Positions 22,297 to 45,963 of a stretch of 64,000 nucleotides of DNA are shown one piece after another. The stretch spans positions 4,784 to 68,783 of the forward strand of contig JACRFK010000010.1 in assembly GCA_016217925.1 (NCBI GenBank), given 5' to 3'. The notes beneath the pieces are model-generated. The model saw nothing but the letters and a program-made list of their open reading frames with translations. It was not told the DNA's origin and made no database searches. Source of the stretch: Candidatus Kaiserbacteria bacterium. GTDB lineage: Bacteria > Patescibacteriota > Minisyncoccia > Phycocordibacterales > UBA2100. How positions within the stretch are numbered: the first letter of the stretch is position 1; every line of letters begins with the position of its first letter. Position numbers and translations under genes: made by a program.

Positions 22297-22319
22297 GGGA
22301 AATACGATATACTAATAAC

Positions 22320-28170: not shown

Positions 28171-29223
28171 ATGCTTATGAAGAGAGTTGCTGTCGTCGGT
28201 GGAGGAATATTTGGCGCTACCGCCGCCATCTATGCTGCACGCGCGGGGCACGAGGTGCATTTGTTCGAAAAAGAATCGGATGTCCTGCAGGCCGCCTCCG
28301 GCATCAATCAGTACCGGCTCCACCGTGGGTACCACTACCCGCGCTCGTCAGATACGGCGCGTTCGGCGAAGGAGGCAGACGTCTCGTTCCGCGATGAGTA
28401 TCGCGAGGCTGTAATCGAGAACGGCCGGCACATCTATGCTATCGCCAAAGAGGGAAGCTTGGTTGCTCCGGAAGCATTTCTCGCGTTTTGCCGTGAGCAG
28501 GGACTAGAGGTCAAGGAAATCCCGGCCGAGCCGCATCTCGTTCCCAATTTGGTCGCTCTCGTCGTTGAAGGAGAGGAATCGTGGATGGATCCGGCAGCTC
28601 TGCGGCGTGTCGTTCTCAAGAAACTCAAAGAGTCAGGCGTTGAGCTCCACCTCAACACCCGCGCCACTCCGGAGATGCTCGAATCATTCGATACGGTAGT
28701 ACTCGCGACATACGCGCGGCTCAATGAGCTCGTGCCGCCGGAAGTTGATGTGACCCAGGAATACCAGTACGAGGTGTGTGAAAAGCCGGTCGTTCGTTTG
28801 TCCGGCTTGGAGAACATTGGCATCGTGGTCCTTGACGGACCGTTCATGTGCGCCGACCCGTGGGGGGACAGCGGGCTGCACGTGCTCGGCAACGTGGTAC
28901 ACGCGATACACGCGACCAACATCGGTCGAACCCCCATTATTCCCGAAAACCTTGCACCGCTCCTCGACCGCGGCCTCATCAAGAATCCGCCCATTACGAA
29001 GATACAAGACTTCATCGCAAGCGGCTCGCAGTACATACCCGCTCTTGGTACGGCAGAACACGTTGGCTCTCTTTTCACCATACGCACGGTCTTACCGCGG
29101 CTCGAAAAGACCGATGCGCGACCGACCATCGTGACCAAACTTTCCGACCGCTACATCAGAATATTCTCGGGGAAAATTGGGAATTGTGTGGAGGCGGCAA
29201 AAGAGGTCGTGGCACTTCTCTAG
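28171..29223 (+). CDS. FAD/NAD(P)-binding oxidoreductase
   Basis: 350 aa. N-terminal dinucleotide-binding VAVVGGGIFGATAAIYAA...VHLFE. Confidence 0.65.
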   Translation: MLMKRVAVVGGGIFGATAAIYAARAGHEVHLFEKESDVLQAASGINQYRLHRGYHYPRSSDTARSAKEADVSFRDEYREAVIENGRHIYAIAKEGSLVAPEAFLAFCREQGLEVKEIPAEPHLVPNLVALVVEGEESWMDPAALRRVVLKKLKESGVELHLNTRATPEMLESFDTVVLATYARLNELVPPEVDVTQEYQYEVCEKPVVRLSGLENIGIVVLDGPFMCADPWGDSGLHVLGNVVHAIHATNIGRTPIIPENLAPLLDRGLIKNPPITKIQDFIASGSQYIPALGTAEHVGSLFTIRTVLPRLEKTDARPTIVTKLSDRYIRIFSGKIGNCVEAAKEVVALL

Positions 29224-30110
29224 GCTCGCCCCGCCGTCGGCGGGGCGAGCATCTCATGGATTTTCAGCACGTGTGCGCCGAAATCTCCGGCCGTGCGCGG
29301 TATCGCTCCTCCGCCTGCGGCCCCGATAAACACTCGTACTTCTTGCGTGAGCGATGTCTCGGTGCTTTCAAAAATAACCTCTTCACCCTTGTATAATTTC
29401 GTGTCGTCCCACCGCAGCTTCGTGCCATCGATGAGTGTTGCCTCAATCGTATGGGCCTTCTCTTCCGAGAGCCTATCTATCTTCGAAATGAATTCGCACT
29501 GTTTGTAGGCGAACTTCGTCTCGATGCGATCGCATACGGTTTCTCCCGCCTCGCGCAAAGTGACCGATGCGGACTCCGGCATGCCATACAGGTCGTATGC
29601 AATTGAGAGGTGATGAGTGAGAAGAGCATTTTCGATGATGTCGAAGAACGTCCCATGCTTTTTCCACGTGCATTCTATGCGCGTAGCACCCTTTTCTTGT
29701 ATGAGGCGTTTGAGTTCCTGATAGACGGGGTGGTAGAGGAGCGTGTAGCCCGTCATAAGTATGCGGCCCTTTTCTTGCGCGAGCGCAGCGAGCGCGTATG
29801 CCTCCGCAGAGGTTTCTGTCAGCGGCTTTTCCACGAAGACGTGCTTTCCGGCTTCAAGAAAACGCCGGGCTATTTTTTCATGCGTTGCGACCGGGGTGGC
29901 GATGGCTACCGCGTCGACCACGGCATCGGCACTTATTTCCTCCACGCTCGCACGACGGGTTTGGGGCAGGGCTGTCGCAGCCCACGCGTCGTTCTTGTCG
30001 CTTTCTGAGGCAAAATACGCGAGCTCGCTTACATCTGCGAGTTCGCGGGCGACATTCTTACCCCATCTGCCGACCCCGATAATAGCGGTTTTCAGGCGCT
30101 TTTGTTCCAT
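29220..30110 (-). CDS. Gfo/Idh/MocA-family NAD(P)-dependent oxidoreductase (sugar dehydrogenase-like)
   Basis: 296 aa. AIIGVGRWGKN and EKPL motifs. Convergent with, and overlapping, the previous gene by 4 nt. Confidence 0.8.
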   Translation of the reverse strand: MEQKRLKTAIIGVGRWGKNVARELADVSELAYFASESDKNDAWAATALPQTRRASVEEISADAVVDAVAIATPVATHEKIARRFLEAGKHVFVEKPLTETSAEAYALAALAQEKGRILMTGYTLLYHPVYQELKRLIQEKGATRIECTWKKHGTFFDIIENALLTHHLSIAYDLYGMPESASVTLREAGETVCDRIETKFAYKQCEFISKIDRLSEEKAHTIEATLIDGTKLRWDDTKLYKGEEVIFESTETSLTQEVRVFIGAAGGGAIPRTAGDFGAHVLKIHEMLAPPTAGRA

Positions 30111-30135
30111 TGCACTCTACGGTAGCATAGAACCA

Positions 30136-31251
30136 ATGCGCGTGCTTCTTACCACGGGTATCTTTTTCCCCGACGTCGGGGGTCCCGCCACACACGTGCG
30201 CAAGATAGCTGAACATTTTGCGGGCCTCGGATGGCAGGTCACAGTGGTCGCTTTTGGCAATCACACAGGCAGTTCGCAAAAATACCGGGTGGTACGGGTG
30301 AGCCGGAAGTGGGGCAAGCTCGCCTCGTGGCTGCTCTACGCCTTGGCCATTGCGCGTGAATCGTTCAAGCACGATGTGCTCTATGCATTTGACCTCACGA
30401 CCGCCGGCATTCCAAGCGCACTCTTCGCAAAACTCCTCCGCAAGCCATTCATCCTCCGTATCGGCGGCGACCCTATCTGGGAGCGCATCGTGGAAAAAGG
30501 CGAGAGGTCCTTGCCGATGCGCGCATACTACGAGCAAGGGCTTTTCAAGAAAGATAAGCCGACACTGTATCGCATCATTCGCCGCGTGGTGCGCACTGCA
30601 GACACCGTTGTAACGTACTGCGACTTTCTCAAAGATATTTACGTGAGGCACTACGGCGTGAGCGAAAAAAGAGTCGTGCAGATCAAAAACCCATTCCCGA
30701 CAAAGACCTCCGCGACACTCGAAAAAGACACGTTCACATTCCTTTTTGCGGGGAGGTTCGTGTCGTATAAGAATCTGCCGCGCGTTCTCAAAGTGTTCAG
30801 GACCATTTCTGCAAAGCACGACAATGCCCGACTCGTCCTTATTGGCGACGGTCCCGATGAAGCGGCACTAAAAGCGAGGGCGGCTGCGCTTGGCAGCAAA
30901 GTGGAGATAATTCCGAAGGTAGATCAGAAGGCGCTCTTCGCCCGCATCAACGCGTCGTCCGTCGCGCTCGCTCCCGCGCTCACCGAATTCAATCCGAATT
31001 TCATTCTCGAAAGCTTGGCGCTTGGCAAACCTGCGCTCATCAGCCGCGACAACGGTCTCTCCGCACAGTTGCCCGACTACATGCAATTCGATCCGATGGA
31101 CGATGCATCACTCGAAACGGCGATGGAGCGCATGCTCGACGCAGGGAACTACCGTGAAGCCATTCGCGTCGTCGCCGGACTTCCGATGGACCAGACGTGG
31201 GGGAAAGTCGTCGCGGAACACGCAGTCATTGTGCAAGCAGCTGCCGGGTGA
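30136..31251 (+). CDS. glycosyltransferase, GT4 family
   Basis: Internal ATG (aa 126) of track ORF 29761, whose 5' part is antisense to the previous gene. MRVLLTTGIFFPDVGGPATHV... is a typical GT4 start. C-terminal E-x7-E region (FNPNFILESLALGKPALISRDNG). Confidence 0.8.
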   Translation: MRVLLTTGIFFPDVGGPATHVRKIAEHFAGLGWQVTVVAFGNHTGSSQKYRVVRVSRKWGKLASWLLYALAIARESFKHDVLYAFDLTTAGIPSALFAKLLRKPFILRIGGDPIWERIVEKGERSLPMRAYYEQGLFKKDKPTLYRIIRRVVRTADTVVTYCDFLKDIYVRHYGVSEKRVVQIKNPFPTKTSATLEKDTFTFLFAGRFVSYKNLPRVLKVFRTISAKHDNARLVLIGDGPDEAALKARAAALGSKVEIIPKVDQKALFARINASSVALAPALTEFNPNFILESLALGKPALISRDNGLSAQLPDYMQFDPMDDASLETAMERMLDAGNYREAIRVVAGLPMDQTWGKVVAEHAVIVQAAAG

Positions 31252-31295: not shown

Positions 31296-31419
31296 CGTCC
31301 CGTTAGAAGTCACGGAAGTTCTTCTAGTGGTAAGCAGGTGGTAGCTTTACATATGGTCGATATCTTAGGAACGATAATTTTTGAGTCGGAAGCGCAGGCT
31401 TCCTACTTCTAACGGGATG
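31296..31419 (+). promoter_or_regulatory. inverted-repeat leader element whose 3' arm overlaps the start codon (shared 13-mer TTCTAACGGGATG)
   Basis: GCGTCCCGTTAGAAGT (31296-31310) pairs with ACTTCTAACGGGATGCGC (31405-31422). The internal hairpin GGAAGC-gcag-GCTTCC is at ~31389-31404. The same 13-mer precedes the gene at 55522. Confidence 0.35.
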
Positions 31420-33357
31420 CGCGTACTGGTACTCTCCACCGATTGGAACGCTTTTAATGAATCGAGCGCTGTTACCAAGCGCCTGCAGATGCAGGCGCGC
31501 ACGGTGGAGCGCATGGACGTCCTGGTGCCCCACGGGCCCCTACAGCTCGTCCAGATATCAGGAAACGCCTCGGTGCGGGGATTTGGCTTGGGACGCGTTT
31601 TGGGCTCTCTGCGCACTATTGCGGCCGGATGGCGACTCCAACGGCCGGATGTCGTCTCTGCGCAAGACCCGTTCTTGACCGGCTTCGTCGCATGGATAAT
31701 CGCGTGGATGCGGGGAAGCAAACTCCACCTGCAAGTACATACCGACCTTTTCGACCCGTACTTCGGCGGCCTCTCGCTCGGCAATCGCCTGAAAGTGTTG
31801 CTTGCGCGATTTCTTCTCACACGGGCGGATTCCGTGCGTGTTGTTTCCAAACGCATCGCAGATTCACTTGCTGCACGCGGTATCAAAGCGCCCGTTACCG
31901 TACTGCCTGTATTTGTCGACCTTGAGAATCTCAAAAAAACGGAACCGCTCGATAAGCGTGAGCGGTACCCGAATTTCAAGAAAATCGTTCTTGTTGTCGC
32001 ACGGTTGGAAAAAGAAAAGAATGTCGCGGCATCTGTCCGTGCATTTGCAGAAATTGCAAAAGCGGATACGAGCGCGGGGCTCGTCGTCATCGGGAGCGGT
32101 TCACAGCGTGTGCCACTCGAAACGCTCGCGCGCGAGCTCGGTATCACGGACAAAGTGGTGTTTGAAGGCGCGCAAGACCCGTTCCCGTTTTACAAATCCG
32201 CAGACCTCGTCCTCGTTACGTCGGAATACGAAGGATTCGGCATGGTCATCGTAGAAGCGCTTGCGGCCGGGTGTCCGGTCGTTTCCTACGATATAGGTCT
32301 TGCGCGTGAGGCGGGCGCTGTTATTGCGAAGGTCGGAGATTTGCCTCGTGTCGCCACCGCCGTTTTATCCGAAAGGAAGCGTGGCAAACTCACGCTCAGT
32401 TTTCCCAATGAAGCCGAATACCGCGAACTGTGGTTCGCCGATATCTCTCTTTCGGTCTCAGGCGTCGAAGCTCGCGCGGGAGAGAAGAAAAGCACCGGTG
32501 AGCAACCCACCGTGGGCTATGTGGGGCAGGGATTCATCGGCAAGAATTATGCCGATGAGCTCGAAAGCCGCGGCTTTAAAGTAGTCCGGTATTCGCTCGA
32601 AGAGCCGTATCGCAACAATAAAGACAAAATAAAAGATTGCGATATCGTTTTTATCGCGGTACCGACGCCGACTACACCCGACGGGTTTAGCGACACCATC
32701 GTGCGGCAGACGGTCGGGCTCGTGGGCGAGGGCAAAGTCGCGGTCATTAAATCCACCATGCTCCCCGGCATGACTGAAAAGATACAAAAAGAATTCCCGA
32801 AACAGGTCGTGATGCACTCACCCGAATTCTTGCGCGAGGCGACCGCCGCATACGACGCCGCGCATCCGGACCGCAACATCGTGGGTATTTGTACGGATAC
32901 ACCCGAAGTACGCGCGCTCGGGCAAAAGGTCATTTCTATTCTTCCGCCTGCACCATTTGAGCTCGTGTGCTCCTCAGTGGAGGCGGAATTCATCAAGTAT
33001 GCGGGCAATAACTGGCTCTATATCAAGGTCGTGTACGTCAACATCCTCTACGATCTTGTGCAGAAGCTCGGCGGCAATTACGAGCACGTGCGCGACGCCT
33101 TCGCGGCCGACCCTAGAATGGGCCGCTCGCACCTTGACCCGATACACGCGAGCGGACATGGCGGACCTCCCGGCCGCGGTGCAGGCGGGCATTGCTTCAT
33201 CAAAGATTTCGCTGCGTTCCGCTCGATGTATGAACAAGTGTTTCCGGAAGATAAAGCGGGCATTGAGGCACTGAAGGGAATGGAGGAGAAAAATGTGAAG
33301 CTTCTGCGTGATGCGCACAAAGACCTCGATTTGCTCGATGGCGTCTATGGGAAGTAA
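31417..33357 (+). CDS. fusion protein: GT4 glycosyltransferase (N) + truncated UDP-glucose/GDP-mannose 6-dehydrogenase-like domain (C)
   Basis: N-terminal GT-B carries the E-x7-E motif (YEGFGMVIVEALAAGCPVVS). The C-terminal ~290 aa has the nucleotide-sugar-dehydrogenase Rossmann GYVGQGFIGKNYA, VPTPTTPDG (cf. VGTPT) and catalytic-Cys motif GGHCFIKD (cf. GGSCFPKD). It lacks the C-terminal UDP-binding domain. Confidence 0.7.
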   Translation: MRVLVLSTDWNAFNESSAVTKRLQMQARTVERMDVLVPHGPLQLVQISGNASVRGFGLGRVLGSLRTIAAGWRLQRPDVVSAQDPFLTGFVAWIIAWMRGSKLHLQVHTDLFDPYFGGLSLGNRLKVLLARFLLTRADSVRVVSKRIADSLAARGIKAPVTVLPVFVDLENLKKTEPLDKRERYPNFKKIVLVVARLEKEKNVAASVRAFAEIAKADTSAGLVVIGSGSQRVPLETLARELGITDKVVFEGAQDPFPFYKSADLVLVTSEYEGFGMVIVEALAAGCPVVSYDIGLAREAGAVIAKVGDLPRVATAVLSERKRGKLTLSFPNEAEYRELWFADISLSVSGVEARAGEKKSTGEQPTVGYVGQGFIGKNYADELESRGFKVVRYSLEEPYRNNKDKIKDCDIVFIAVPTPTTPDGFSDTIVRQTVGLVGEGKVAVIKSTMLPGMTEKIQKEFPKQVVMHSPEFLREATAAYDAAHPDRNIVGICTDTPEVRALGQKVISILPPAPFELVCSSVEAEFIKYAGNNWLYIKVVYVNILYDLVQKLGGNYEHVRDAFAADPRMGRSHLDPIHASGHGGPPGRGAGGHCFIKDFAAFRSMYEQVFPEDKAGIEALKGMEEKNVKLLRDAHKDLDLLDGVYGK

Positions 33358-34399
33358 ACCGCAACGACTTCTCGTCGTCACACAGGTTGTCGATAGTACG
33401 GACCCGTTCCTCGGATTTTTTCACGGGTGGCTGGAAGAGCTTGCGAAGCATTTCGAGCACATCCATGTGATATGCCTCAAAGAGGGTGAACACAAACTTC
33501 CGGCGAATGTGCATGTTCATTCGCTGGGGAAGGAAAAAGGAGAGTCGCGCGGGAAATATGTTTTTCGATTTCTCGGATACGTCTGGAAATTGCGCGGCGA
33601 GTACGACACGGTCTTCGTGCACATGAATCAGGAATATATTTTGCTCGCCGGATGGCTCTGGAAGCTTTTGGGCAAGCGGATGTATATGTGGCGCAATCAC
33701 TACGCCGGCGGGTTTCTGACGGATATGGCCGCGATGTTCGCTGTGAAAGTATTTTGTACCTCGGCACATTCCTACACGGCAAAATACAAAAAGACAGTCA
33801 TCATGCCGGTCGGAGTGGACACTCAGTTATTTGCGCCGGGCGCTGGGTTCCGCATGCCACGCTCCATTTTATTCTTGAGCCGCTTCGCGCCCGCAAAAAA
33901 GCCGGATGTGCTGCTGGAAGCACTCGGAATACTTTCGAAAGAAGGCGTCCAATTCACGACGTCTTTTTATGGGACGGCTCTCCCGCAAGATACCGCGTAT
34001 CGTGAGAAGGTCATCAAGCGTGCACAGACACTCGGTCTCGGGAACTTCGTGAATTTTTACGAAGGTGTACCGCACACCCAAGCACCGGACATATTCAACA
34101 AGCACGAAATATTCGTAAATCTGTCTTCGAGCGGCACGTACGACAAGACGATGTTCGAGGCTGCCGCGTCCGGCTGCGTCGTCATCGCGGCAAGCAAAGA
34201 TTTTGCGACAGTTGCAGGTGAGCAGTCCCTTGTCGCTGAAGATGTAAAAGCGGTGGCGGATAAGTTGCGTGAGTTCCTTGCGCTCGCGGACGGTGCGCGT
34301 GCCACTCTTGCGGCGCAATTACGGGAGAAAGTACTTGCGGGACAGAGTCTGCCGTTTCTTGCGCAACGCGTAATAACCGAGATGTCAGAAAAAAAATGA
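33338..34399 (+). CDS. glycosyltransferase (GT-B, GT4-like)
   Basis: About 353 aa. The start is chosen at an internal ATG overlapping the upstream stop. Two-domain GT-B pattern, with the C-terminal FEAAASGCVVIAAS region. Confidence 0.6.
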   Translation: MASMGSKPQRLLVVTQVVDSTDPFLGFFHGWLEELAKHFEHIHVICLKEGEHKLPANVHVHSLGKEKGESRGKYVFRFLGYVWKLRGEYDTVFVHMNQEYILLAGWLWKLLGKRMYMWRNHYAGGFLTDMAAMFAVKVFCTSAHSYTAKYKKTVIMPVGVDTQLFAPGAGFRMPRSILFLSRFAPAKKPDVLLEALGILSKEGVQFTTSFYGTALPQDTAYREKVIKRAQTLGLGNFVNFYEGVPHTQAPDIFNKHEIFVNLSSSGTYDKTMFEAAASGCVVIAASKDFATVAGEQSLVAEDVKAVADKLREFLALADGARATLAAQLREKVLAGQSLPFLAQRVITEMSEKK

Positions 34400-37155
34400 T
34401 TACTATGCGATTCTGCTATTTCGGCATTTACGACCCTGAATTTTCGCGCAACAGGATTTATATGCGCGCTCTTCGCGATGCAGGGCACGAAATCATCGAA
34501 TGTAGGGACAACAGTCGAGGGTTGCTTAAGTACATCCGGCTGGTGCAGCGTCTCCGTGCCCTGAAAGGTTCGTACGACGTCATACTAGTCGGGTACCCCG
34601 GGCACATTGTAGTGCCTCTTGCGCGGCTCTTTGGCGCTGCTCCGGTTGTGTCCGATCTGCTAGGCTCTCTTTCGGACGCTGCGGAGCATACGTACGATGC
34701 CGGATTTTTTGTTCGGACGTGGTACTCATGGGTGGATCGACTTGCAGTTGCGTTCTCAGATGCCATCCTCGTCGACAGTGAACTTCAGAAGGAATATATG
34801 CAGCGTCGATATGGTAGTGGGAAGAAATATCGAGTTGTGTACACAGGGGCGGATGAAGAGGTATTCGGACCGCGTGGGGAGCGAGGTGTCACGCGCACTG
34901 AGCCATTTGTTGTGTTGTTCCGGGGCAGGCTTATTCCCCAAGCGGGCATCATGCACATACTGGACGCCGCAGAAGGTTTACAAAACGACAAACGTTTCGC
35001 ATTTCGGATCATTGGATACGGTCCATTGCTTGAGGCTGTACGTGAGCGGGCCGGCGGATTATCGAATGTAGAGCTTATCGCAGAGCACATTTCTTTTGAT
35101 GAGATGCGCCGTCTGATGCTTGATGCCGACGTGAGCCTCGGCCAATTTGGGGACAACGAGCGATCGGACCGCAACATACCGCACAAAGCATATGAGTCGA
35201 TCTCTATGGGTATTCCCTACCTTACAGCACGAGTGCCTGGGATATCCGAACTTCTTGAGGATGAGGTCTCGTGTCTTATGGTGCCGTTGGAGAACTCGGA
35301 AGCGATTAAAGCCGCTCTTGAGCGGCTTAGAGACGACCGCCCACTTGGAAAGCAGCTTGCAGAGATGGCGCGGGCGGTATACGAAGCGCATGCGTCGGCT
35401 CGTGTTATTGCTTCAGCGATTACGGCTGTCTCCGTCTCATGCGTCGAAGCAAAGAAAAAGCTGGCCAAACGAAGCTTAGAGTGGATCGGGAAGCGTGAGA
35501 TGGTGGTCGTACTTGTCCTGCTCGCGGCATTCGTAGCGATACGCCTCCCCGGGCTCTCTCTTCCATATCATCAGGACGAGGCAAAGATTGGAGAGATTGT
35601 GCGCTCGCATATGGTAGGCGCGCTTTCCGGGCACCCACCGCTAACAGAACTCTTGTACCTCTCTGCCGGCGATATAGTCGGCTCAGACCATTTGCGTCTC
35701 ATACCGCTTATATTTGGCGTTCTATCGGCCATTCTCTTGTATGCGATAGTCCGACGGAGGGCGGGATTGCATGCGGCCTACGCCTCTCTCGCGCTCTATA
35801 TCATCTGCATGTACGGTGTATTTGCCTCGCTGATGGTAGATACGGATGGGGCCGTGCTCCCGACACTTTTTCTCGCGGCAGTGTACGCATATGACCGTTT
35901 TCGTGATGCGGCATCCGCTCGTGTTTCGTATGTATGGCTGTCTGTTCTTGCGCTCGCGCTCATCGCCGGGTTTCTAACCAAGCTCAGTTTCGTGCTCGTC
36001 TTGGGAGCGCTCGCGCTCGATTACCTCTTCGAAGTGCGTCACAGGCTTACACGCAGGCTTCTCATCCGTGCAGTTTTCGCCGCTTTGGTTTGTGGGGTTG
36101 CGGCAGCTGTTGCACTCGCGAGCGCACACTTTTTTCTCCCTTCTTTTGACGTGAGCCAGACTATTCTGCACGCGCTCTCCTATGTGCGATTTGAAGGGCG
36201 CGGATATTTACAGATCCTGATACAAGCGGTGAAGGCGGTCTTCTACCTTTCTCCGCTCCTTCTCCTACCACTGGTGTTTCTCACGAAAGATACCTTCACA
36301 AAGAACAGGATATTTTTCGTCTACCTCGGCTTGGGCGCGTTCTTTTACTTTGTCCTATTTGATTTCTCTCAGGGAGCGCTCGATAAGTATTTGATGTATA
36401 CCATCGTGCCGCTCGCAGCTATCATGGGTACCATCTTCACCGATGCAATGCGCGGACTTACGGTGCGAGCTCTCGCGGCAGGATCTATTCTCGGAGCAAT
36501 GTGTGCGACATTGCTCGTCGCCCTCAACTTCCTCTCACCGAGTGTCATGCCGCTCTATCCGAAAACGGAATGGCTCTCTGCGATCGCAGCCGGGAATTGG
36601 AATATTCTCATGCCGTTCACGGGGGGCGACGGACCGATAGGATTTTATGTCTCGTTCCTCGTCATCGCCGCTGGATTCGGCATCTCCGCCGCTCTTGCTG
36701 CTCTCGCGCTTTTCGTACCGAAAGCGCGCGGTGCGCTTCTCGTCGCTCTTATTGTGGTCGGTGTAGCGTTCAACGGTATTTTCATCGAAGAGTATATTTG
36801 GGGCCGCATTAACGGCAGCGCACCCTCGGCCCTTCGGGCGAGTCTCGCGTACATTGCTAGTTCAGACGATGTGAAAAGTATTATTTCCCACGGGGAGATC
36901 GGAGCGTACGAGCTCAGAGGAATGGGCAAATTCAGCGGCAGATTTTATGCGGTCCCCGGTTACGAGGAAGGACACAAGGCGTTATTCTCGAAGTTTACCG
37001 GCGCATATCTGGTCGTGGGTGTGCCCCGCTTCAATGATGCAAGTTTTTACAGTAAGTTTTTCAGTACATGCACACCAATCTTCACGACTTCGTCCGGAGT
37101 CATCAACGCCTACGTATATGGCTGTGCAGGAAGCGATCCATACGCTATAAAGTAA
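34396..37155 (+). CDS. fusion protein: GT-B glycosyltransferase (N, ~370 aa) + ArnT/PMT-like GT-C polytopic membrane glycosyltransferase (C, ~550 aa)
   Basis: N-terminal GT-B carries E-x7-E (HKAYESISMGIPYLTARVPGISELLEDE). The C-terminal domain has about 12 TM segments. Its first extracytoplasmic loop carries the PMT_2/ArnT signature LPYHQDEAKIGEIVRSHM (cf. ArnT LPDETRYAEISREM). Confidence 0.7.
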   Translation: MITMRFCYFGIYDPEFSRNRIYMRALRDAGHEIIECRDNSRGLLKYIRLVQRLRALKGSYDVILVGYPGHIVVPLARLFGAAPVVSDLLGSLSDAAEHTYDAGFFVRTWYSWVDRLAVAFSDAILVDSELQKEYMQRRYGSGKKYRVVYTGADEEVFGPRGERGVTRTEPFVVLFRGRLIPQAGIMHILDAAEGLQNDKRFAFRIIGYGPLLEAVRERAGGLSNVELIAEHISFDEMRRLMLDADVSLGQFGDNERSDRNIPHKAYESISMGIPYLTARVPGISELLEDEVSCLMVPLENSEAIKAALERLRDDRPLGKQLAEMARAVYEAHASARVIASAITAVSVSCVEAKKKLAKRSLEWIGKREMVVVLVLLAAFVAIRLPGLSLPYHQDEAKIGEIVRSHMVGALSGHPPLTELLYLSAGDIVGSDHLRLIPLIFGVLSAILLYAIVRRRAGLHAAYASLALYIICMYGVFASLMVDTDGAVLPTLFLAAVYAYDRFRDAASARVSYVWLSVLALALIAGFLTKLSFVLVLGALALDYLFEVRHRLTRRLLIRAVFAALVCGVAAAVALASAHFFLPSFDVSQTILHALSYVRFEGRGYLQILIQAVKAVFYLSPLLLLPLVFLTKDTFTKNRIFFVYLGLGAFFYFVLFDFSQGALDKYLMYTIVPLAAIMGTIFTDAMRGLTVRALAAGSILGAMCATLLVALNFLSPSVMPLYPKTEWLSAIAAGNWNILMPFTGGDGPIGFYVSFLVIAAGFGISAALAALALFVPKARGALLVALIVVGVAFNGIFIEEYIWGRINGSAPSALRASLAYIASSDDVKSIISHGEIGAYELRGMGKFSGRFYAVPGYEEGHKALFSKFTGAYLVVGVPRFNDASFYSKFFSTCTPIFTTSSGVINAYVYGCAGSDPYAIK

Positions 37156-37158
37156 CCT

Positions 37159-38574
37159 ATGCACCTCAGTAAGACCGCGCGAGAGTATTTCGATGCACAG
37201 GCGGACGAGCGTCTCAAGTGGCGGCGCAAGAATCCGTATTACCATGACTCGCTCGAATCCTTCGTCGGGTTCCTTGTCCCGCGCGGCAGTTCGGTGCTCC
37301 ACGTCGGAGCCGACTCGGCGTCGCTCCTCAATCTGTTGGCCCCGGCCCGTGGGCTGGGTATCCACGCGAGCGCCCGCATCATAGGTGAGGTCAACAAGCA
37401 GGGGATTTTGCCGGGGCTCCAATTCAAACAGACGGAGCTCTCGCAAGTCAAAGGTGTGTTCGAATATGTTGTTATTTCAGACTTGCTCGGACACGTCGAT
37501 GATATTGAGATGCTTTTTCGGGAAGCGACAAGGCTCATCTCGTGGCGCGGCCGCATAGTGGTGACACAGCACAGCGCATTGTGGGGGCCGGTACTGCGCC
37601 TCGCTTCAGCGCTCGGACTTCGGGTGCCATATCGCTTGGAAAATTGGGTCTCACGCACTGACCTTGAGAATTTCGCGCACCTCGCGGGGCTGGAGGCGGT
37701 GCGGAGCGGCACGCGGATGCTCATTCCGAAACGCGTCCCATTCATAAGCACGTTCTTCAACGCCTACCTTGCGAATATTTTTCCGTTCACACGGCTCGGC
37801 TTGTATCACTACGTCGTCTTGCGCAAGCAGGACTCCCGCTCACCGATTCCCAACCCCTCGCTTTCCATTGTTGTCCCGGCACGTAACGAGGCCGGTATGA
37901 TAGAGCGCATTGTAAAAGAGTTGCCAACGCTCGGAGAGTTCACCGAGCTAATCCTTGTCGAAGGACATTCCAAGGATAATACGTGGCAAGAAATCCAACG
38001 TGTCGCAAAAGAGTACGGCGCGAAGAAGAAAATACTCATCGCACAGCAGGAGGGCAAAGGCAAGGGTGATGCGGTACGCAAAGGATTCGACATGGCGACT
38101 GGGGATATCCTTACTATATACGATGCGGATATGACCGTGCCTGCTCCGGACGTGGAAAAATTCTATCGGGCCCTTGTCGAAGGAAGGGGGGATTTCATCA
38201 ATGGCTCGCGGCTTGTGTACCCCCTTGAGAAACAATCTATGCAATTTCTTAACTTTCTTGCCAATAAGTTTTTTGGGCTCGCTTTCAGCTGGCTTTTGAG
38301 CTCGAAGTTGAAAGACACGCTCTGCGGCACGAAGATGCTGTGGCGCGAGGACTACAAAGAAATACAGGCGGGCCGCTCGTTTTTCGGCGACTTCGATCCC
38401 TTCGGCGACTTCGACCTACTCTTCGGAGCCGCCAAGCTCAACAGAAAGATCATTGATATGCCGGTCCATTACGGAGAGCGTACCTATGGGACGACGAATA
38501 TAGAGCGGTGGAGTCACGGATGGTTGCTTCTGAAAATGACCGTTTTTGCCCTGCGTAAGATAAAATTTGTGTGA
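37159..38574 (+). CDS. fusion protein: degenerate class-I methyltransferase-like domain (N) + Dpm1/GtrB-like GT2 polyprenyl-phosphate glycosyltransferase (C)
   Basis: The N-terminal ~215 aa are a paralog of the downstream MT at 38571 (YFDAQADERLKWRRKNPYYHD vs YFDAIAAQYDYWKKKNAYYHE). The SAM motif I is degenerate (VLHVGADSAS vs VLEIGCGTGD). The C-terminal GT2 has LSIVVPARNEAGMI and the DxD motif YDADMT. Confidence 0.7.
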   Translation: MHLSKTAREYFDAQADERLKWRRKNPYYHDSLESFVGFLVPRGSSVLHVGADSASLLNLLAPARGLGIHASARIIGEVNKQGILPGLQFKQTELSQVKGVFEYVVISDLLGHVDDIEMLFREATRLISWRGRIVVTQHSALWGPVLRLASALGLRVPYRLENWVSRTDLENFAHLAGLEAVRSGTRMLIPKRVPFISTFFNAYLANIFPFTRLGLYHYVVLRKQDSRSPIPNPSLSIVVPARNEAGMIERIVKELPTLGEFTELILVEGHSKDNTWQEIQRVAKEYGAKKKILIAQQEGKGKGDAVRKGFDMATGDILTIYDADMTVPAPDVEKFYRALVEGRGDFINGSRLVYPLEKQSMQFLNFLANKFFGLAFSWLLSSKLKDTLCGTKMLWREDYKEIQAGRSFFGDFDPFGDFDLLFGAAKLNRKIIDMPVHYGERTYGTTNIERWSHGWLLLKMTVFALRKIKFV

Positions 38575-39239
38575 CTTTTTCGGAAGACTACTTTGACGCA
38601 ATTGCCGCCCAGTATGATTACTGGAAAAAAAAGAATGCCTATTACCACGAGAATCTGAAACTATTGTACGGGCAATTCATCCCGAAAGGGGCGCGAGTTC
38701 TCGAAATCGGCTGTGGCACGGGGGACATCTTGGCACGCCTTGAGCCGAAAGAGGGAAGGGGGGTCGACGTGAGCGAAGAGATGGTGGAAATCGCACGGCG
38801 CAAATATGCGGGCAAATCGAATCTTCAGTTCGAGCGCGAAGATATTTTTGAAAGCACGAAAATGTTCGGATATCCGTACATTTTTCTTGCCGACGTGCTG
38901 GAGCATGTGGGCGGTCTCGAGAAATTTGTGCGACAACTTGCCGCCCGCACGGACTCGGGTAGTACGGTCGTTATCTCCGTCGCCAACCCGCTTTGGGAAC
39001 CGGTACTCATGCTCGCTGAGAAGCTCCATATGAAAATGCCCGAAGGCCCACACACACGCGATCCAATACAAGAAACGGAACGCATCTTCCGTGCATCCGG
39101 TTTTACCATCGTTGAACGCGGGTATCGGCTCCTCATTCCTAAGAAGATCCCTGGTGCCGATTGGCTTAATGCCCGATTCCATCACTTTCGGTTCTTTGCT
39201 CCGCTCGGTTTCGTTATTTTTTGGGTGCTCCGCCGATAG
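38571..39239 (+). CDS. class I SAM-dependent methyltransferase
   Basis: 222 aa. Intact motif I VLEIGCGTGD. GTG start overlapping the upstream stop (GTGA). Confidence 0.75.
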   Translation: MTFSEDYFDAIAAQYDYWKKKNAYYHENLKLLYGQFIPKGARVLEIGCGTGDILARLEPKEGRGVDVSEEMVEIARRKYAGKSNLQFEREDIFESTKMFGYPYIFLADVLEHVGGLEKFVRQLAARTDSGSTVVISVANPLWEPVLMLAEKLHMKMPEGPHTRDPIQETERIFRASGFTIVERGYRLLIPKKIPGADWLNARFHHFRFFAPLGFVIFWVLRR

Positions 39240-39699
39240 AAGGCATTACACCCTCGTGAGTATCGTGGAACACCAGGTGTTTGTAGCTGAAGTAGTTCAT
39301 CATGGCGATGAAGACACCGCTTATGAGCTGTGCCCCCAAGTAGTGAAGTCCCCCGTATTCAACAAGCACAAAGATAAGCGTTGTATTGATCCCAAGCCCG
39401 ACAAACACAATGGTCAAAAAGGTGAGTGCCTGCGCATACACATGATCTCTGGATACATCCTTAAACGTCCAGAGCTTTTGCATCGAAAAACTTACCCAAA
39501 AGGCGAGCATGAATGCAATTATCGATGAGAATACGTACCAGACGCTGAAGAAGTGAGTAAGGGAAAAGAGGGTTCCAAGGTTTACCAAAGTCGCAATACC
39601 ACCGGAGATACAGAATCGGATGATGCGCATCGGCGAAGGATACAGGGCGTTGGCGCGAGCGCGGACCTCTTTGATCAGGAGCAAGAGGTTCGCAATCAT
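39214..39699 (-). CDS. gtrA: GtrA-family membrane protein (polysaccharide synthesis/flippase accessory)
   Basis: 161 aa, 4 TM. RFCISGGIATLVNLGTLFSL is typical of PF04138. Confidence 0.75.
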   Translation of the reverse strand: MIANLLLLIKEVRARANALYPSPMRIIRFCISGGIATLVNLGTLFSLTHFFSVWYVFSSIIAFMLAFWVSFSMQKLWTFKDVSRDHVYAQALTFLTIVFVGLGINTTLIFVLVEYGGLHYLGAQLISGVFIAMMNYFSYKHLVFHDTHEGVMPSIGGAPKK

Positions 39700-39788: not shown

Positions 39789-40766
39789 ATGTCTGATTTT
39801 TATACAGGAAAAAAGGTGCTCGTGACCGGCGGGGCTGGTTTTATCGGCAGCCACGTTGTAGAAATGCTCGTGGAGCGTGGGGCGCATGTCACCGTGCCGG
39901 TACGTTCAACGACCAAGACAGATTTTCTGGACAGCGTTCGTGACCGTATATCCATCGTCGAAGCGGACCTACGCGATCGGCCTCGTGTCGATGCGCTCAT
40001 GCAAGGTCAAGAGATCGTCATGAATCTTGCCGCCGCCAAGGGCGGGGGCATAGCACATAGTATGAAGCATCACGGGAGCCTCTTCCGCGACAACATGCAA
40101 CCCTATCTGCAAGTGCTCGATGCTGCGCGCGAGGCAGAGGTCGAGCGATTCTTGGTGGTGAGCTCGGCCTGCGTGTATTCACGTGAGGCGAGCAACCACG
40201 CGCTCGAGTCGGAAGGATTTTTGGGCGTGCCGGAAGCGGCCAATGCCGGATATGGCTGGTCCAAGCGTATGGAGGAATACGTGGGCCAAGCGTACGCAGC
40301 GGAGTTCGGTATGAAGGTCGCTATCGCGCGCATGTACAACGGATATGGTCCGCGAGACGATTTTTTCGCAGAATATAACCACGTCATCCCCGGACTCATT
40401 AAGAGGATATTCGAAGGTGAAAATCCGCTCGTCGTCTGGGGAACCGGCACGCAGACGCGCTCCTTCATATACGTCACCGACTTCGCCCGCGGTATCCTCC
40501 AGGTCTGCGAGAAATACGCCGTTGCTGACCCACTCAATATCGGGAGTGACGAAGAGATTTCCATTGGTGACTTGGCGCACCTTCTCATTGAGCTTTCGGG
40601 TAAGGAAGTGAAAGTCGAATTTGATACGACAAAGCCGGACGGGCCATTGCGCCGAAGCGCCGACACCAGCAGAGCTTTTGAGAAAATCGGTTTCCGCACC
40701 GAGGTGCCTCTGCGCGAAGGTCTGAAGAAAAGCATAGAATGGTATCAAGCAAACAAACCACAATGA
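39789..40766 (+). CDS. NAD-dependent epimerase/dehydratase (GDP/NDP-6-deoxyhexose reductase or epimerase-like)
   Basis: 325 aa. VLVTGGAGFIGSHVV and YGWSK (YxxxK). Confidence 0.75.
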   Translation: MSDFYTGKKVLVTGGAGFIGSHVVEMLVERGAHVTVPVRSTTKTDFLDSVRDRISIVEADLRDRPRVDALMQGQEIVMNLAAAKGGGIAHSMKHHGSLFRDNMQPYLQVLDAAREAEVERFLVVSSACVYSREASNHALESEGFLGVPEAANAGYGWSKRMEEYVGQAYAAEFGMKVAIARMYNGYGPRDDFFAEYNHVIPGLIKRIFEGENPLVVWGTGTQTRSFIYVTDFARGILQVCEKYAVADPLNIGSDEEISIGDLAHLLIELSGKEVKVEFDTTKPDGPLRRSADTSRAFEKIGFRTEVPLREGLKKSIEWYQANKPQ

Positions 40767-41428
40767 CCGTCACTCTTATCGCAGCGACACTCAATGAGCT
40801 TGAAGCCGCGAAGGTTGTCTTGCCGCGCATTGGCCGGAAGTATGTGGATGAGATCATCATCGTCGACGGCGGCTCGACCGACGGTACAGTCGAATTCTGC
40901 AAGAGCCAGGGATACACGGTTTTCCAACAGATTGAGCCCGGGTATGGCTCTGCTATGAAGGAGGCGATCGCGCGGGCGAGCGGGGATATCATTATCGAAT
41001 TTCCACCCGATGGAAATTCTATGCCCGAAAAAATCCCCGATGTCATAAGGAAATTGCAGGAAGGCTACGACTTCGTCATAGCGTCGCGCTATGCGCCGGG
41101 TGCGCGGAGCGACGACGACGACTTTCTCACGGCGATAGGGAATTGGGGGTTTACATTCGCGACGAATCTTCTCTTTTGGAGTTCGTATACTGACGTTCTC
41201 GTAGGTTTTCGCGGCTATCGCAAGAGTGCATATGAGAAGCTTGATATGACAGCCACAAGTCTCGATTGGTCAATGCAAATGCCCATACAATTCAGGAAAA
41301 AGAGATTGCGGGTAGCTGATATTCCCGCAATTGAGCCGAAGCGGATCGGCGGTGTGAGAAAGATGCGCCCATTCAGAACGGGCTGGCGGATTCTCAAGAT
41401 ACTCATTAGAGAGCGTTGTAGTCTATAA
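40763..41428 (+). CDS. GT2 glycosyltransferase (Dpm1/GtrB-like, short)
   Basis: Internal ATG overlapping the upstream stop (ATGA). LIAATLNELE...IIIVDGGSTDGT...FVIASRY. Confidence 0.75.
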   Translation: MTVTLIAATLNELEAAKVVLPRIGRKYVDEIIIVDGGSTDGTVEFCKSQGYTVFQQIEPGYGSAMKEAIARASGDIIIEFPPDGNSMPEKIPDVIRKLQEGYDFVIASRYAPGARSDDDDFLTAIGNWGFTFATNLLFWSSYTDVLVGFRGYRKSAYEKLDMTATSLDWSMQMPIQFRKKRLRVADIPAIEPKRIGGVRKMRPFRTGWRILKILIRERCSL

Positions 41429-42700: not shown

Positions 42701-43459
42701 TTACTTCCGGAGGACCCACCAGTGAGGGAGCGATAGATTTTCGTCCTTCTTGTAGCCGGAACGTTTGATGAGTAGCTCTTCCGCTATCATTTTGATGTGC
42801 GGCAGGGACTGCTGCTCTTTTGTGTAGTCCGAGAAGTTGTACATCGTGCGATAAAAATACCACTGGCTCAAGCTACGCATCATATTTGCTTTGAGGAACG
42901 AAAGGCTCCATGGAATGTCGTCGAGCAAGAGGTAGCCGCCTGGCTTCAAGAGTTTGTCCGCGAGCATCATCGCGGGTAGGTCTATGTAAAAGGTATGATG
43001 ACCATCCACGTAAATAACGTCGAATTGTTCGCCCTTTTGGAGCATCTCAAAAAGAGTCCATGAATACGTGCCAGTGGAGTTCATCGCGAAGGAAATGTTT
43101 TTTGTATCGAAGCCCTTTATCGCCAATTCTTCTTCGTGGCTCTCGCAGACGCTCTTGAAATCGCACCCAACGTACGAAATAGAATGTTCGTTGATGAGTT
43201 TCAGCCTCTCGAAATGTGGGAATTCACCGATGCCGACTTCCAAGAATTTCCCACCTGGTATACGCTCCAGAAGTTTTCTGATACTTCTCTCCTTGCTCAC
43301 CCTCGGATCTTCTTCCGTGTCTTTCTCTGCGTGTGTAAAACCGAGATTTCGAAGTTTAAATAGGAGCCACAGCGGAAAATAGAGAAGATGAAGAAGCTTT
43401 TTGCTTCCACGTACTTTCAAAAGTCTAAGGAATTTTATTGTCTCCATATGCTTCGTCAT
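42701..43459 (-). CDS. class I SAM-dependent methyltransferase (AT-rich)
   Basis: 252 aa. FLEVGIGEF...VIYVDGHH. Lower GC than the flanking genes. Confidence 0.6.
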   Translation of the reverse strand: MTKHMETIKFLRLLKVRGSKKLLHLLYFPLWLLFKLRNLGFTHAEKDTEEDPRVSKERSIRKLLERIPGGKFLEVGIGEFPHFERLKLINEHSISYVGCDFKSVCESHEEELAIKGFDTKNISFAMNSTGTYSWTLFEMLQKGEQFDVIYVDGHHTFYIDLPAMMLADKLLKPGGYLLLDDIPWSLSFLKANMMRSLSQWYFYRTMYNFSDYTKEQQSLPHIKMIAEELLIKRSGYKKDENLSLPHWWVLRK

Positions 43460-44796: not shown

Positions 44797-45963
44797 ATGG
44801 ACGATGTAGTAGGTGTGACCACCTCATCACGGGCGGGGGATACCATCAGTACGACTTCGCGGCAGCCCTTTTTTGTCGCCTACATCGGCTGCCTCATCGT
44901 CATCGCAAGTCTCTCGCTCTACTTTCTCCCTCATATTCTTCAGGGTGATGCACTTAGCTATGTCGATGCCGCCAAGGCATATGCGCAAGGCCAGCATTTA
45001 AGCATCGATCTGTCAGGTGAAATTACTCGGGAAATCGTCGCCGTGCATCGCATGCTGACAACGACGCTCGGTATACAGGCTCTCCGCTTCTTTTCAACTA
45101 TCGCAGGCTCGTTTGAGGTTGGTTGGCTCTTAATGGATACTGTTCTCTTTTTCGGCGGAAGCATCGTCTTGTACCTGCTCCTTGCGCGATTCTACGAAAG
45201 CGAGCGTGTGGCATTCATCGGCGGGCTCTTCTACGCCGGCAATTATTCGATGCTTTCGCAAGGCATGGGGTACTTCATGGACATAGGGGGATGGTTCTTT
45301 TATCTCCTTGCGCTGCTGCTGATATACCTCTATATCGAGTCCGGGCGGTATCGAATGCTTGTGATCGCGGCACTCACGATTGCAGTCGGTGGGTTCTTTA
45401 AAGAAAATGCCTACATGGCTTCAATTCCTTTAGGCGCGATACTTCTTTTCGAGTACTACAAAAAGCCATTGACACTTCTCGCAAAATCTGTTCCGCTTGG
45501 CCTGCTCGTCGTCGGACCGGCTGTATTACAGCACCTCTACATATACCGTGAATACGGGTATACATACGCGTATTGGATTCATGTGAGTCAAGACTACTAC
45601 GAGTACAACTCGGTTATTGTGGAGTACATAAAGAGTTTTGGTTCTCTGCTCACGTTCCTCGCGCCTGTTGCACTCATTGGTGCATATGAATTTGTGCGTC
45701 GCTTTTTTGATCCCACACTCGATCACAAAAAGAAAGTCTTTCTCGTGTCTGTGCTTGCGTCATCCATTCCGGCCGTATTATGGCCTGCGATTACGCAACG
45801 CGTTCTTTTTCTCGCTGTTCCCGGGCTTATTCTGCTCGCGGGACTGTGTATCAAGCGATTCGAGCGATATTGGTACGCATTCGTGCCGCTTATCATTTTG
45901 TATTTGCTTGCGGCTCTCACGATGGATTCCTTTATTCTCAACTACGTAAATCTGCCGATGTAG
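44797..45963 (+). CDS. polytopic membrane protein, candidate Wzy-type polymerase or GT-C-like
   Basis: 388 aa, about 10 TM. No soluble domain or diagnostic motif seen. Assigned by context next to wzx. Confidence 0.4.
   Translation: MDDVVGVTTSSRAGDTISTTSRQPFFVAYIGCLIVIASLSLYFLPHILQGDALSYVDAAKAYAQGQHLSIDLSGEITREIVAVHRMLTTTLGIQALRFFSTIAGSFEVGWLLMDTVLFFGGSIVLYLLLARFYESERVAFIGGLFYAGNYSMLSQGMGYFMDIGGWFFYLLALLLIYLYIESGRYRMLVIAALTIAVGGFFKENAYMASIPLGAILLFEYYKKPLTLLAKSVPLGLLVVGPAVLQHLYIYREYGYTYAYWIHVSQDYYEYNSVIVEYIKSFGSLLTFLAPVALIGAYEFVRRFFDPTLDHKKKVFLVSVLASSIPAVLWPAITQRVLFLAVPGLILLAGLCIKRFERYWYAFVPLIILYLLAALTMDSFILNYVNLPM

Follow-up and report, generated by a model that had tools for sequence, protein, structure and literature searches.

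Three- and four-component systems of extracytoplasmic glycosylation, such as GtrA/GtrB/GtrC, CsbB/GtcA/YfhO, GacI/J/K/L, and the lactococcal WpsA/B-WpsG-WpsJ, are characterized by a polyprenyl-phosphate-sugar synthase of glycosyltransferase family GT2, a GtrA-family small membrane protein, and a membrane glycosyltransferase of the GT-C fold that are encoded together. In lactococcal PSP synthesis, C55-P-GlcNAc is elongated by cytoplasmic glycosyltransferases, flipped, and then transferred by a GT-C enzyme (PMC10821137). In these systems the parts are separate proteins. In this work, we describe a module of this kind from Candidatus Kaiserbacteria, an uncultivated member of the candidate phyla radiation (CPR; Patescibacteria), in which, in contrast, a GT-B glycosyltransferase of the GT4 type is joined to the GT-C enzyme and the synthase is joined to a methyltransferase (MTase). 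The locus lies in a 64,000-nucleotide stretch of contig JACRFK010000010.1, called the window below, and the fused glycosyltransferase gene occupies its positions 34396-37155 on the forward strand. The best reading of this gene is a lineage-specific operon collapse in an extracytoplasmic glycosylation module of the GtrA/GT2/GT-C type. Overall, we tentatively regard its product as a bifunctional fusion within such a module, with the GT4 half serving as an optional elongation step for the lipid-linked donor, and we give this reading a probability of roughly 45%. The domain fusion and the four-part module are new here; the system is of a known kind, and neither a new enzyme class nor a new principle is involved. 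No description of a GT-B/GT-C or GT4/GT83/GT39 fusion was found in the literature searched, which is no proof of its absence.

A succession of cytoplasmic and extracytoplasmic steps is also established in two well-known pathways. In mycobacteria, PimA/PimB' act before PimE/Mpt, with Ppm1 making the donor, and in eukaryotes, ALG2/ALG11 act before ALG3/9/12, with DPM1 making the donor; in both cases cytoplasmic GT4 enzymes that use nucleotide sugars are followed by extracytoplasmic GT-C enzymes that use a GT2-made polyprenyl-phosphate sugar. PimA and ALG9/ALG12 are among the fold matches of the protein described here. These pathways differ from it in that they consist of separate proteins with defined substrates, and the likeness, drawn from established knowledge, implies no orthology.

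The preliminary description of this DNA, made from the letters of the sequence, had proposed a single polypeptide of 919 amino acids, and this was borne out. Positions 34396-37155 (+) form one unbroken open reading frame (ORF) of 919 codons, the likely true start of which is the ATG at 34405 (M4), giving 916 aa. M4 is the start in all homologues and in the NCBI entry "glycosyltransferase [Candidatus Kaiserbacteria bacterium]" (P0001, 916 aa), which is identical to the window protein. In a search of a set of 5.8 billion proteins, at least 26 independent full-length homologues with the fusion were identified, 893-921 aa long and 52-83% identical overall; they are drawn from NCBI, ENA, JGI, and Logan assemblies. 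The same single-ORF fusion is found in five GTDB species-representative genomes (L010-L014). The DNA of the related locus L009 is collinear with the window straight over the junction, from 33365 to 39181, and the linker between the two halves can be aligned among the fused homologues. Because the same fusion occurs in so many independent homologues and in five species representatives, the GT4::GT-C fusion is real and not an assembly chimera. The opposing possibility, that two adjacent genes were merged through a chimera in the assembly or through an overlooked stop or frameshift, found no support, even though standalone versions of each half do exist; against the same in-frame junction in four data sources, it is effectively refuted. 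An internal start giving a free GT-C protein as well was ruled out, since M368 is not conserved among fused homologues. In the databases, these proteins are named only "glycosyltransferase" or "glycosyltransferase family 39 protein". A word-index search with the N-terminal half alone returned only standalone proteins of about 350 aa and no fused homologue, which we take to be a quirk of the search.

Hidden Markov models (HMMs) and AlphaFold2 modeling give consistent domain boundaries. The GT4-like GT-B half comprises residues 4-350 (34405-35445, +) and is predicted to be cytoplasmic. It is followed by a Lys/Arg-rich linker of low pLDDT, residues 351-365 (35446-35490, +), which marks the junction of the fusion, the point where standalone homologues of GT4 end and those of GT-C begin. 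The GT-C membrane domain covers residues 366-801 (35491-36798, +), and a C-terminal alpha/beta domain covers residues 802-919 (36799-37152, +). The full-length model, built on a 42-sequence alignment, has a mean pLDDT of 89.1, with disorder confined to residues 359-363. Pfam, the models, and Foldseek agree on the arrangement that had been proposed earlier, namely a cytoplasmic GT-B enzyme fused N-terminally to a GT-C enzyme resembling ArnT and the protein mannosyltransferases (PMT).

The C-terminal half is assigned to the ArnT/PMT clan by several independent comparisons. The Pfam family PMT_2 matches residues 429-566 with 34.4 bits (gathering threshold 26.1). A separate model of residues 361-919 reached a pLDDT of 87 and a pTM of 0.87, and its best Foldseek match is ArnT (5ezm), with an E-value of 2.5e-8 and a TM-score of 0.53 over about 595 columns. 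The next matches are STT3/AglB, PMT1/2/4, ALG9/12, and EmbB, all of them GT-C enzymes; membrane families other than glycosyltransferases, including transporters, appeared in this Foldseek search only with non-significant E-values. In the model, the GT-C fold has a long first outside loop with two short helices (393-403 and 415-428). A single sequence or a narrow profile of this half found no match among PDB sequences, whereas a profile of 60 family members (A3), reaching down to 25% identity, found ArnT as its sole match among all PDB sequences (E 1.4e-6). The preliminary description had counted about 12 transmembrane (TM) segments. The many-TM character of the C-terminal half stands and the number does not, as the models give 13 helices plus the 118-aa alpha/beta domain, which carries invariant residues C892 and C910. 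With 13 TM helices and the N-terminus inside, this last domain is predicted to be extracytoplasmic. Lys and Arg abound in the stretch ahead of TM1, and the first loop is acidic, so that the modeled topology appears coherent: a basic linker, TM1 running from inside to outside, and both the Asp-Glu loop and the C-terminal domain outside.

The first outside loop carries the motif LPYHQDE, in which a match to the Asp-Glu motif of ArnT/PMT_2 enzymes had been suspected; the motif is real, and the match is backed by position and conservation. Residues Y391-H-Q-D394-E395 (35566-35580, +) contain the putative catalytic pair, placed six to seven residues past TM1. D394 is the same in all 60 members, and Y391, Q393, and E395 are so in almost all, E395 being conserved in at least 90% of them. 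An essential acidic pair in the loop after TM1 is known from ArnT (D55/E56) and Pmt1 (D77/E78) (PMC7801869), and D394/E395 are equated with these residues by topological position and invariance, the segment not being aligned by the HMM. Searched against the PDB, the 133-aa segment around the motif gave only chance ankyrin/DARPin matches. Elsewhere, the alignment of the family profile with ArnT pairs H413 with K85, D484 with D158, and K529 with K203. D484 belongs to the motif D482-T-D484-G485 (35839-35850, +), whose residues D484 and G485 do not vary; H413 and K529 are each conserved in 90% or more of the members. In ArnT, K85 contacts the phosphate of the lipid carrier, and D158 and K203 contact the sugar or the acceptor (PMC7801869). 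Taken from these sequence features, the GT-C half looks catalytically competent.

ArnT, the GT83 enzyme that transfers 4-amino-4-deoxy-L-arabinose to lipid A (PDB 5ezm/5f15), is thus the solved protein closest to this half. They share 13 TM helices, an outside C-terminal domain, the Asp-Glu pair, and conserved equivalents of K85, D158, and K203. The differences are also clear, since identity is only about 16% and ArnT lacks the N-terminal GT4 domain of the fusion. Patescibacteria are generally described as lacking an outer membrane, which makes a lipid A acceptor unexpected. An ArnT orthologue was ruled out by the NCBIfam ArnT equivalog (15.6 bits against a cut-off of 567) and by the missing Arn context: no genes of the Arn pathway for Ara4N, including ArnA- or ArnD-like ones, were found in the window. 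A PMT proper (GT39) was ruled out as well, as the window protein has no PF02366 or MIR match at E <= 0.01; a weak PF02366 match is seen in some relatives.

The N-terminal half is a divergent enzyme of the GT4 type. It matches two Pfam models of the GT4 C-domain, Glyco_trans_1_4 (51.8 bits, cut-off 27) and Glycos_transf_1 (46.1 bits, cut-off 26.4), both above the gathering threshold. Two models of the GT4 N-domain fall just under theirs (Glyco_transf_4, 27.3 against 28.5 bits; Glyco_trans_4_4, 27.8 against 29.7 bits), which is why this domain is classed as divergent from its sequence. A profile of the subfamily (A4, a 32-sequence alignment) scores 464.7 bits over residues 4-348. AlphaFold2 predicts a GT-B fold of two Rossmann domains, with a pLDDT of about 90 over residues 1-350, and Foldseek ranks the retaining GT4 enzymes PglA, MshA, HepE, BshA, and PimA highest (E about 1e-11 to 1e-12; TMt 0.68-0.75 for PglA, MshA, BshA, and PimA), in an order that is nearly flat among GT4 structures. 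PglA, the Campylobacter GT4 alpha-1,3-GalNAc transferase acting on undecaprenyl-diphosphate-linked (Und-PP-linked) diNAcBac (8dqd), is the best match both in sequence (E 2.6e-4) and in fold (E 4.3e-12, TMt 0.71). PglA is a peripheral GT-B enzyme that works on a polyprenyl-linked acceptor at the membrane surface. Its identity to the N-terminal half is about 19%, and, unlike the subfamily described here, it has the canonical E-x7-E signature and the Arg/Lys pair.

The E-x7-E signature is the point at which the preliminary description erred. It had attributed this signature to the GT-B half, but the only E-x7-E found in the protein by motif scan, E154-E162, lies in the inter-domain linker of the GT-B fold. 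According to the PglA alignment, the motif scan, and conservation among homologues, the canonical position reads R259-NIPHKAY-E267 (35170-35196, +). R259 stands where GT4 enzymes have the first Glu and does not vary among homologues, whether fused or standalone; Ala183 takes the place of the Lys in the usual Arg/Lys pair. The subfamily signature is R-x-x-R-x-I-P-H-K-A-x-E. Among the 26 fused and 119 standalone homologues and in A4, residues R256, R259, I261, P262, H263, K264, and E267 are invariant, and so are R176, G177, G184, D87, D114, Q131, and K45; E285, a further invariant residue of the subfamily, is kept too. Because this signature is invariant in fused and standalone alignments alike, the active site appears to be divergent but clearly selected and constrained, rather than that of a textbook GT4 enzyme. 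Since all invariant subfamily residues are kept, the GT4 half looks like an active enzyme.

A non-catalytic GT4 half, serving for example as a regulatory domain or as a docking platform for the soluble MTase::GT2 protein encoded next to it, would fit the missing first Glu of the E-x7-E signature and the Ala at position 183. The window protein also departs from residues that are invariant in standalone homologues (E182Q, S99T, T260N, and L257S), and the MTase::GT2 protein has no TM helix and would need a partner at the membrane. The motif deviations, however, are common to all standalone homologues and are themselves invariant, which indicates a distinct but constrained active site, and N-terminal halves remain 83-88% identical where the C-terminal halves have fallen to 52-81%, pointing to strong purifying selection. 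We therefore consider a pseudo-enzyme distinctly improbable.

The donor for the GT-C half is most likely made by the next gene and not by the fused cytoplasmic half, as far as gene content and domain matches can tell. Three nucleotides downstream of the fusion lies the gene of a methyltransferase::GT2 fusion (37159-38574, +; 471 aa), the product of which has no TM helix by hydropathy. Its GT2 domain finds as best PDB match the Dol-P-Man synthase of P. furiosus (5mlz, E 2.3e-12), followed by three ArnC entries, and its best NCBIfam match is AglJ, with 100 bits. It is thus a likely polyprenyl-phosphate-sugar synthase supplying the GT-C enzyme, and with its N-terminal S-adenosylmethionine (SAM) methyltransferase domain it may deliver a methylated sugar. 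In nearly every related locus of Paceibacteria that extends past the GT-C gene, the MTase::GT2 gene comes directly after it: in the window, L001, L002/L003, L004/L005, L008, L009, L020 (6771-8099), L022 (11160-12374), L035 (4766-6076), L044 (8042-9382), and L087 (2205-3539). Its end overlaps the start of a 222-aa SAM-dependent methyltransferase gene identified by Pfam (38571-39239, +). A GtrA-family small membrane protein, a putative flippase for the lipid-linked sugar, is encoded at 39214-39699 (-; 161 aa; Pfam GtrA_DPMS_TM, 85.6 bits). With the downstream GT2 and the nearby GtrA gene, all parts of a three-component system are present without invoking the GT-B half, and on this sequence evidence we assign the GT-C half to a GtrA/GT2/GT-C extracytoplasmic glycosylation module.

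This arrangement bears directly on the earlier suggestion that the fusion couples donor synthesis to transfer, with the GT-B domain making a polyprenyl-phosphate sugar and passing it to its own GT-C half. The fusion itself speaks for this suggestion, the topology is compatible with it, and the very basic signature (R176, R256, R259, H263, K264) without the first Glu could reflect a phosphate-bearing substrate. The suggestion is unsupported because the adjacent DPM1/ArnC-like GT2, encoded so close and conserved with the GT-C gene, and the GtrA gene are there, because orthologous GT-C enzymes occur standalone, fused to GtrA, or fused to GT2, and because in relatives an epimerase gene replaces the GT4 part with the GT-C retained. 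Moreover, the characterized polyprenyl-phosphate-sugar synthases DPMS, GtrB, ArnC, GacI, and WpsA are GT2/GT-A enzymes (in part also PMC10821137), which counts against a GT-B synthase. Donor synthesis by the GT-B half is accordingly very improbable. A weaker form of coupling is possible, in which the GT4 half may elongate the lipid-phosphate sugar before it is flipped, since the GT4 family recurs in a tight [GT4][GtrA][GT-C][MTase::GT2] operon.

The distribution of the two halves supports a link between these four families. In a HMMER scan of 1.84 billion representatives clustered at 50% identity, the fused architecture was found in exactly one cluster (P0016), all other matches covering one half only. 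Relatives of the C-terminal half are numerous standalone proteins (about 550 aa), GtrA::GT-C fusions roughly 700 aa long in about five representatives (P0042 by Pfam; P0169, P0172, P0174, and P0176 by length and match position), and a GT2::GT-C fusion (P0190). Relatives of the N-terminal half are standalone proteins of about 350 aa across Paceibacteria and other fusions of the GT4 subfamily (GT4 with a second GT4, GT4 with a C-methyltransferase, and a kinase-like domain with GT4). The GT2::GT-C and GtrA::GT-C proteins of Paceibacteria (P0190; P0042; L006 4827-6998; L007 884-2668; L004 15258-17168) contain an orthologous GT-C enzyme, 40-46% identical to the C-terminal half, and resemble our protein in that the GT-C enzyme is fused N-terminally to another part of the same module. 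They differ in the partner, which is a donor synthase or a flippase and so is a more natural fit to the idea of coupling. In L006 and L007, a standalone GT4 homologue lies beside or near the GT2::PMT_2 fusion.

To place the GT4 subfamily in its genomic surroundings, its alignment was used to scan 185,579 species genomes; this gave 271 confirmed loci, the best 80 of which were examined with family profiles of the flanking genes. Five of these 80 are fused. The order [GT4][GtrA][GT-C] with abutting ends occurs in six Paceibacteria loci (L016, L020, L021, L022, L026, L035), and [GT4][GtrA][GT-C][MTase::GT2] is complete in three of them (L020, L022, L035); the contigs of L016 and L021 break off within the GT-C gene, and L026 lacks an MTase::GT2 gene right after GT-C. 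GT-C is directly followed by GT4 in L034 and L046, and L087 has the order GT-C, MTase::GT2, GT4. Altogether, this GT-C family lies within 8 kb of the GT4 subfamily in 23 of the 80 loci. Recurrence together and fusion in at least three different pairings are the classical signature of functional linkage, here read from gene order and domain content. The fusion itself appears restricted to a narrow CPR clade, a single one in Kaiserbacteria and close relatives. Its origin is most simply explained by one event, in which the ancestor of the clade would have lost or relocated the intervening GtrA gene and joined GT4 to GT-C in frame.

From these observations we propose the following sequence of steps. 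The MTase::GT2 protein would make a polyprenyl-phosphate sugar, possibly methylated, on the cytoplasmic face. The GT4 half would add a further sugar from a nucleotide sugar to this lipid-linked intermediate, as an optional cytoplasmic Leloir step. GtrA, or the Wzx flippase encoded in the same glycan island, would flip the product, and the GT-C half would transfer the sugar outside to an acceptor on the surface, which may be a glycan, a lipid, or a protein. The fusion would tether the otherwise peripheral GT4 enzyme to the membrane and fix the two enzymes at 1:1, without being a requirement, given that the GT4 half can be swapped like a cassette. Elongation of the donor is favored because the GT4 gene is embedded in a GtrA/GT-C/GT2 operon and because of the lactococcal precedent, where cytoplasmic glycosyltransferases elongate a C55-P-sugar before GT-C transfer, the role proposed for the GT4 half (PMC10821137). 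A stricter version holds that both halves act on the same lipid intermediate from the two faces of the membrane: the GT4 half would form a polyprenyl-phosphate disaccharide, GtrA would flip it, and the protein's own GT-C half would transfer it en bloc. We regard this version as doubtful. If true, it would be the first described natural polypeptide with a Leloir GT-B and a non-Leloir GT-C enzyme in one pathway, as far as the literature searched shows, and it would define a four-component [GT4][GtrA][GT-C][MTase::GT2] module typical of Paceibacteria.

Close relatives show how loosely the two halves are held together. In the Kaiserbacteria loci L001, L002/L003, and L008, the same cluster is present, but a 560-aa standalone GT-C gene follows the gene of a 349-aa NAD-dependent epimerase. 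Collinearity with the window stops at 34206-34285 (L008, L001) or near 33700 (L002) and resumes at 35488-35518 in all three; the gap corresponds precisely to the GT4 half. Between unfused loci, the epimerases share 88-95% identity. Gene fission in these relatives was ruled out, as the gene upstream of GT-C is an epimerase and not a GT4, and no orthologue of it was found in the window. The unfused C-terminal halves are 64-79% identical to that of the window, above many fused homologues (50-59%). In a neighbor-joining (NJ) tree of this half, unfused forms nest at several places among fused ones; the tree is without bootstrap support and there are clear signs of recombination, which leaves the count of events uncertain. 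Because relatives keep the GT-C gene where the epimerase gene replaces GT4, the GT-C enzyme appears to work independently of the GT-B half. Judging by these comparisons, the halves recombine as modules and the locus varies in a serotype-like manner.

Several of these observations weigh against the proposed elongation of the donor. Some fused and unfused GT-C halves are 77-79% identical and interleaved in the NJ tree, and the GT4 half appears to have been lost or replaced repeatedly. The first-loop variants DEAKIGE and DEWKNAE do not track the fusion state; had the GT4 half turned a monosaccharide donor into a disaccharide, one might expect a degree of co-adaptation in the GT-C enzyme. Identities to the window protein are discordant: P0011-P0013 have 86-88% in the N-terminal and 52-54% in the C-terminal half, and P0009 and P0010 have 66-67% and 75-76%, respectively, which indicates recombination between the halves and not co-evolution. 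In 57 of the 80 loci, including those of Actinomycetota, the GT4 subfamily occurs without this GT-C family nearby. Q182 of the window protein replaces a Glu that never varies in standalone homologues, and the full-length model, with a pTM of 0.65, does not define the mutual orientation of the two domains. It is mainly because the halves do not co-vary and the GT4 part is dispensable that we hold our confidence in the elongation reading below one half.

The lack of co-variation and the dispensability of the GT4 part are readily accommodated by the main rival explanation. According to it, the GT4 half acts on the polyprenyl-diphosphate-linked main chain or some other acceptor that has nothing to do with the GT-C donor, the fusion provides only anchoring and co-expression, and the GT-C half decorates the exported glycan outside. 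The dispensability of the GT4 half, its exchange with an epimerase gene at the same position, and the independent recombination of the halves without co-variation all agree with such tethering. So do the best structural match, PglA, which acts on an Und-PP-linked sugar, the fusion of the GT4 subfamily to a second GT4 domain, a C-methyltransferase, and a kinase-like domain, and the equipment of the island, which comprises a Wzx flippase, a Wzy_C/TPR protein, genes of the GDP-mannose pathway, and no fewer than five further GT4 genes. What tethering hardly explains is the recurrent tight operon together with three alternative fusions among exactly these four families, and we see it as a real possibility that is nevertheless on the unlikely side.

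A third role for the GT4 half would be the synthesis of the acceptor. In this case it would make a glycolipid anchor in the inner leaflet, in the manner of PimA or a monoglucosyl-diacylglycerol synthase, which would be flipped and then extended by the GT-C half with sugars drawn from a polyprenyl-phosphate-sugar donor. The significant Foldseek matches of the N-terminal half include PimA, PimB', and the methylmannose-polysaccharide mannosyltransferase, GDP-mannose genes are present in the island, and GT4 inside, GT-C outside, and a GT2 donor synthase reproduce the established order of the mycobacterial phosphatidylinositol mannoside/lipomannan/lipoarabinomannan (PIM/LM/LAM) pathway. However, the GT4 structures score almost alike in the Foldseek ranking, no feature for lipid binding was recognized, and unfused relatives keep GT-C and GT2 without this GT4, so the GT-C enzyme must have an acceptor without it. 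Acceptor synthesis is therefore unlikely, and optional elongation of the donor remains our preferred reading.

The fusion ORF lies in an operon of abutting genes within a surface-glycan island that extends over about 25.6-58.6 kb of the window. Directly upstream in the same operon is a GT4 gene (33308-34399, +; 363 aa) whose product is 24% identical to the fused GT4 half and falls outside its subfamily; origin of the N-terminal half by recent tandem duplication of this gene was ruled out by this low identity and by the absence of an A4 profile match to it. Two genes upstream of the fusion lies a GT4 joined to a truncated UDP-glucose-dehydrogenase-like protein (31381-33357, +). It consists of a complete GT4 and a UDP-glucose/GDP-mannose dehydrogenase-like part with NAD-binding and central domains; its N-domain is matched only from profile position 71 onward, and it lacks PF03720, the UDP-binding domain at the C-terminus. 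Counterparts are found at L001 553-2493, L002 3897-5840, L004 5028-6959, L008 3335-5287, and L009 3378-5324, and the protein keeps a length of 643-658 aa throughout the related clusters, which rules out a pseudogene specific to the window. A further GT4 gene was called as the longest ORF at 29761-31251 (+; 496 aa), overlapping the opposite-strand GFO_IDH_MocA oxidoreductase gene (29220-30110, -) by about 350 nt; its real start is probably near 30130, and the orthologues in L002, L005, L008, and L009 have 370-381 aa. Just upstream of the island, positions 21040-24224 (+) encode a DUF4015 putative glycosyl hydrolase (295.6 bits) and a TrwB/TraG-type protein resembling type IV secretion system coupling proteins (634 aa).

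Past the GtrA gene, the island continues with an epimerase, a small second DPM1/AglJ-like GT2 (40739-41428, +; 229 aa, no TM helix), and a C-methyltransferase. Beyond these come a Wzx-type flippase (43456-44727, -) and a second, shorter PMT_2 GT-C gene (44797-45963, +; 388 aa, about 8 hydrophobic segments), followed after 2 nt by the gene of a soluble 366-aa protein with a weak Glyco_trans_1_2 match of 17.7 bits (45965-47065, +). These last two may represent another GT-C/GT-B-like pairing; their membership in the two fused families was ruled out by the family profiles. Two GDP-mannose 4,6-dehydratase genes (54319-55368 and 49794-50798, both -; 517 and 405 bits to PF16363) point to GDP-6-deoxyhexose chemistry, as judged from these matches. 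The first of them overlaps the 5' end of the longest ORF called for a ManC/PMI-like gene (55225-56331), whose true start is probably further downstream, as its first Pfam match begins at residue 113. At 56345-58579 (+), a 744-aa protein combines a Wzy_C membrane domain, similar to O-antigen ligases and polymerases, with C-terminal TPR repeats, and a similar 724-aa gene of this type flanks the glycan cluster of L007. In more distant clusters, a Wzm/Wzt ABC transporter with a Wzt_C carbohydrate-binding domain lies beside the module (L004/L005 17256-18700, L007 12142-14108). A Pfam scan of window positions 21-64 kb found no Wzm/Wzt-type transporter, the Wzx-type flippase being present instead, and export routes may differ between lineages.

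Other parts of the region vary in a similar way. A segment of about 2.4 kb that L009 (12784-15191) and L008 (11724-14078) have between the methyltransferase and GtrA genes is missing from the window around 39181-39267; it encodes a DegT-type aminotransferase and a 326-aa GT2 and is another difference of the cassette type. Small genes of mobile-element or defense type are found between the glycan genes at varying positions, including a GIY-YIG nuclease (window 54038-54322, -; L001 2497-2778), an NYN domain gene (L008 5290-5793), and AbiEii (L009 5467-6803). Such insertions fit frequent recombination and cassette exchange in this region.

Members of the CPR are tiny, and many are thought to live attached to host cells, which is why their surface glycans are likely to matter for attachment; they are also likely to matter for recognition by phages. 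To our knowledge, next to nothing has been learned about their assembly. The locus described here contains the familiar set of a lipid-phosphate-sugar synthase, a flippase, and a GT-C enzyme in these bacteria, together with an extra GT4 component, and the fusion of the four parts in several combinations is a natural "Rosetta stone" for their functional linkage. The GT4::GT-C protein offers a single polypeptide in which the hand-over from cytoplasmic to extracytoplasmic glycosylation can be studied, and the alternation between GT4 and epimerase cassettes looks like serotype-type variation in an uncultivated lineage.

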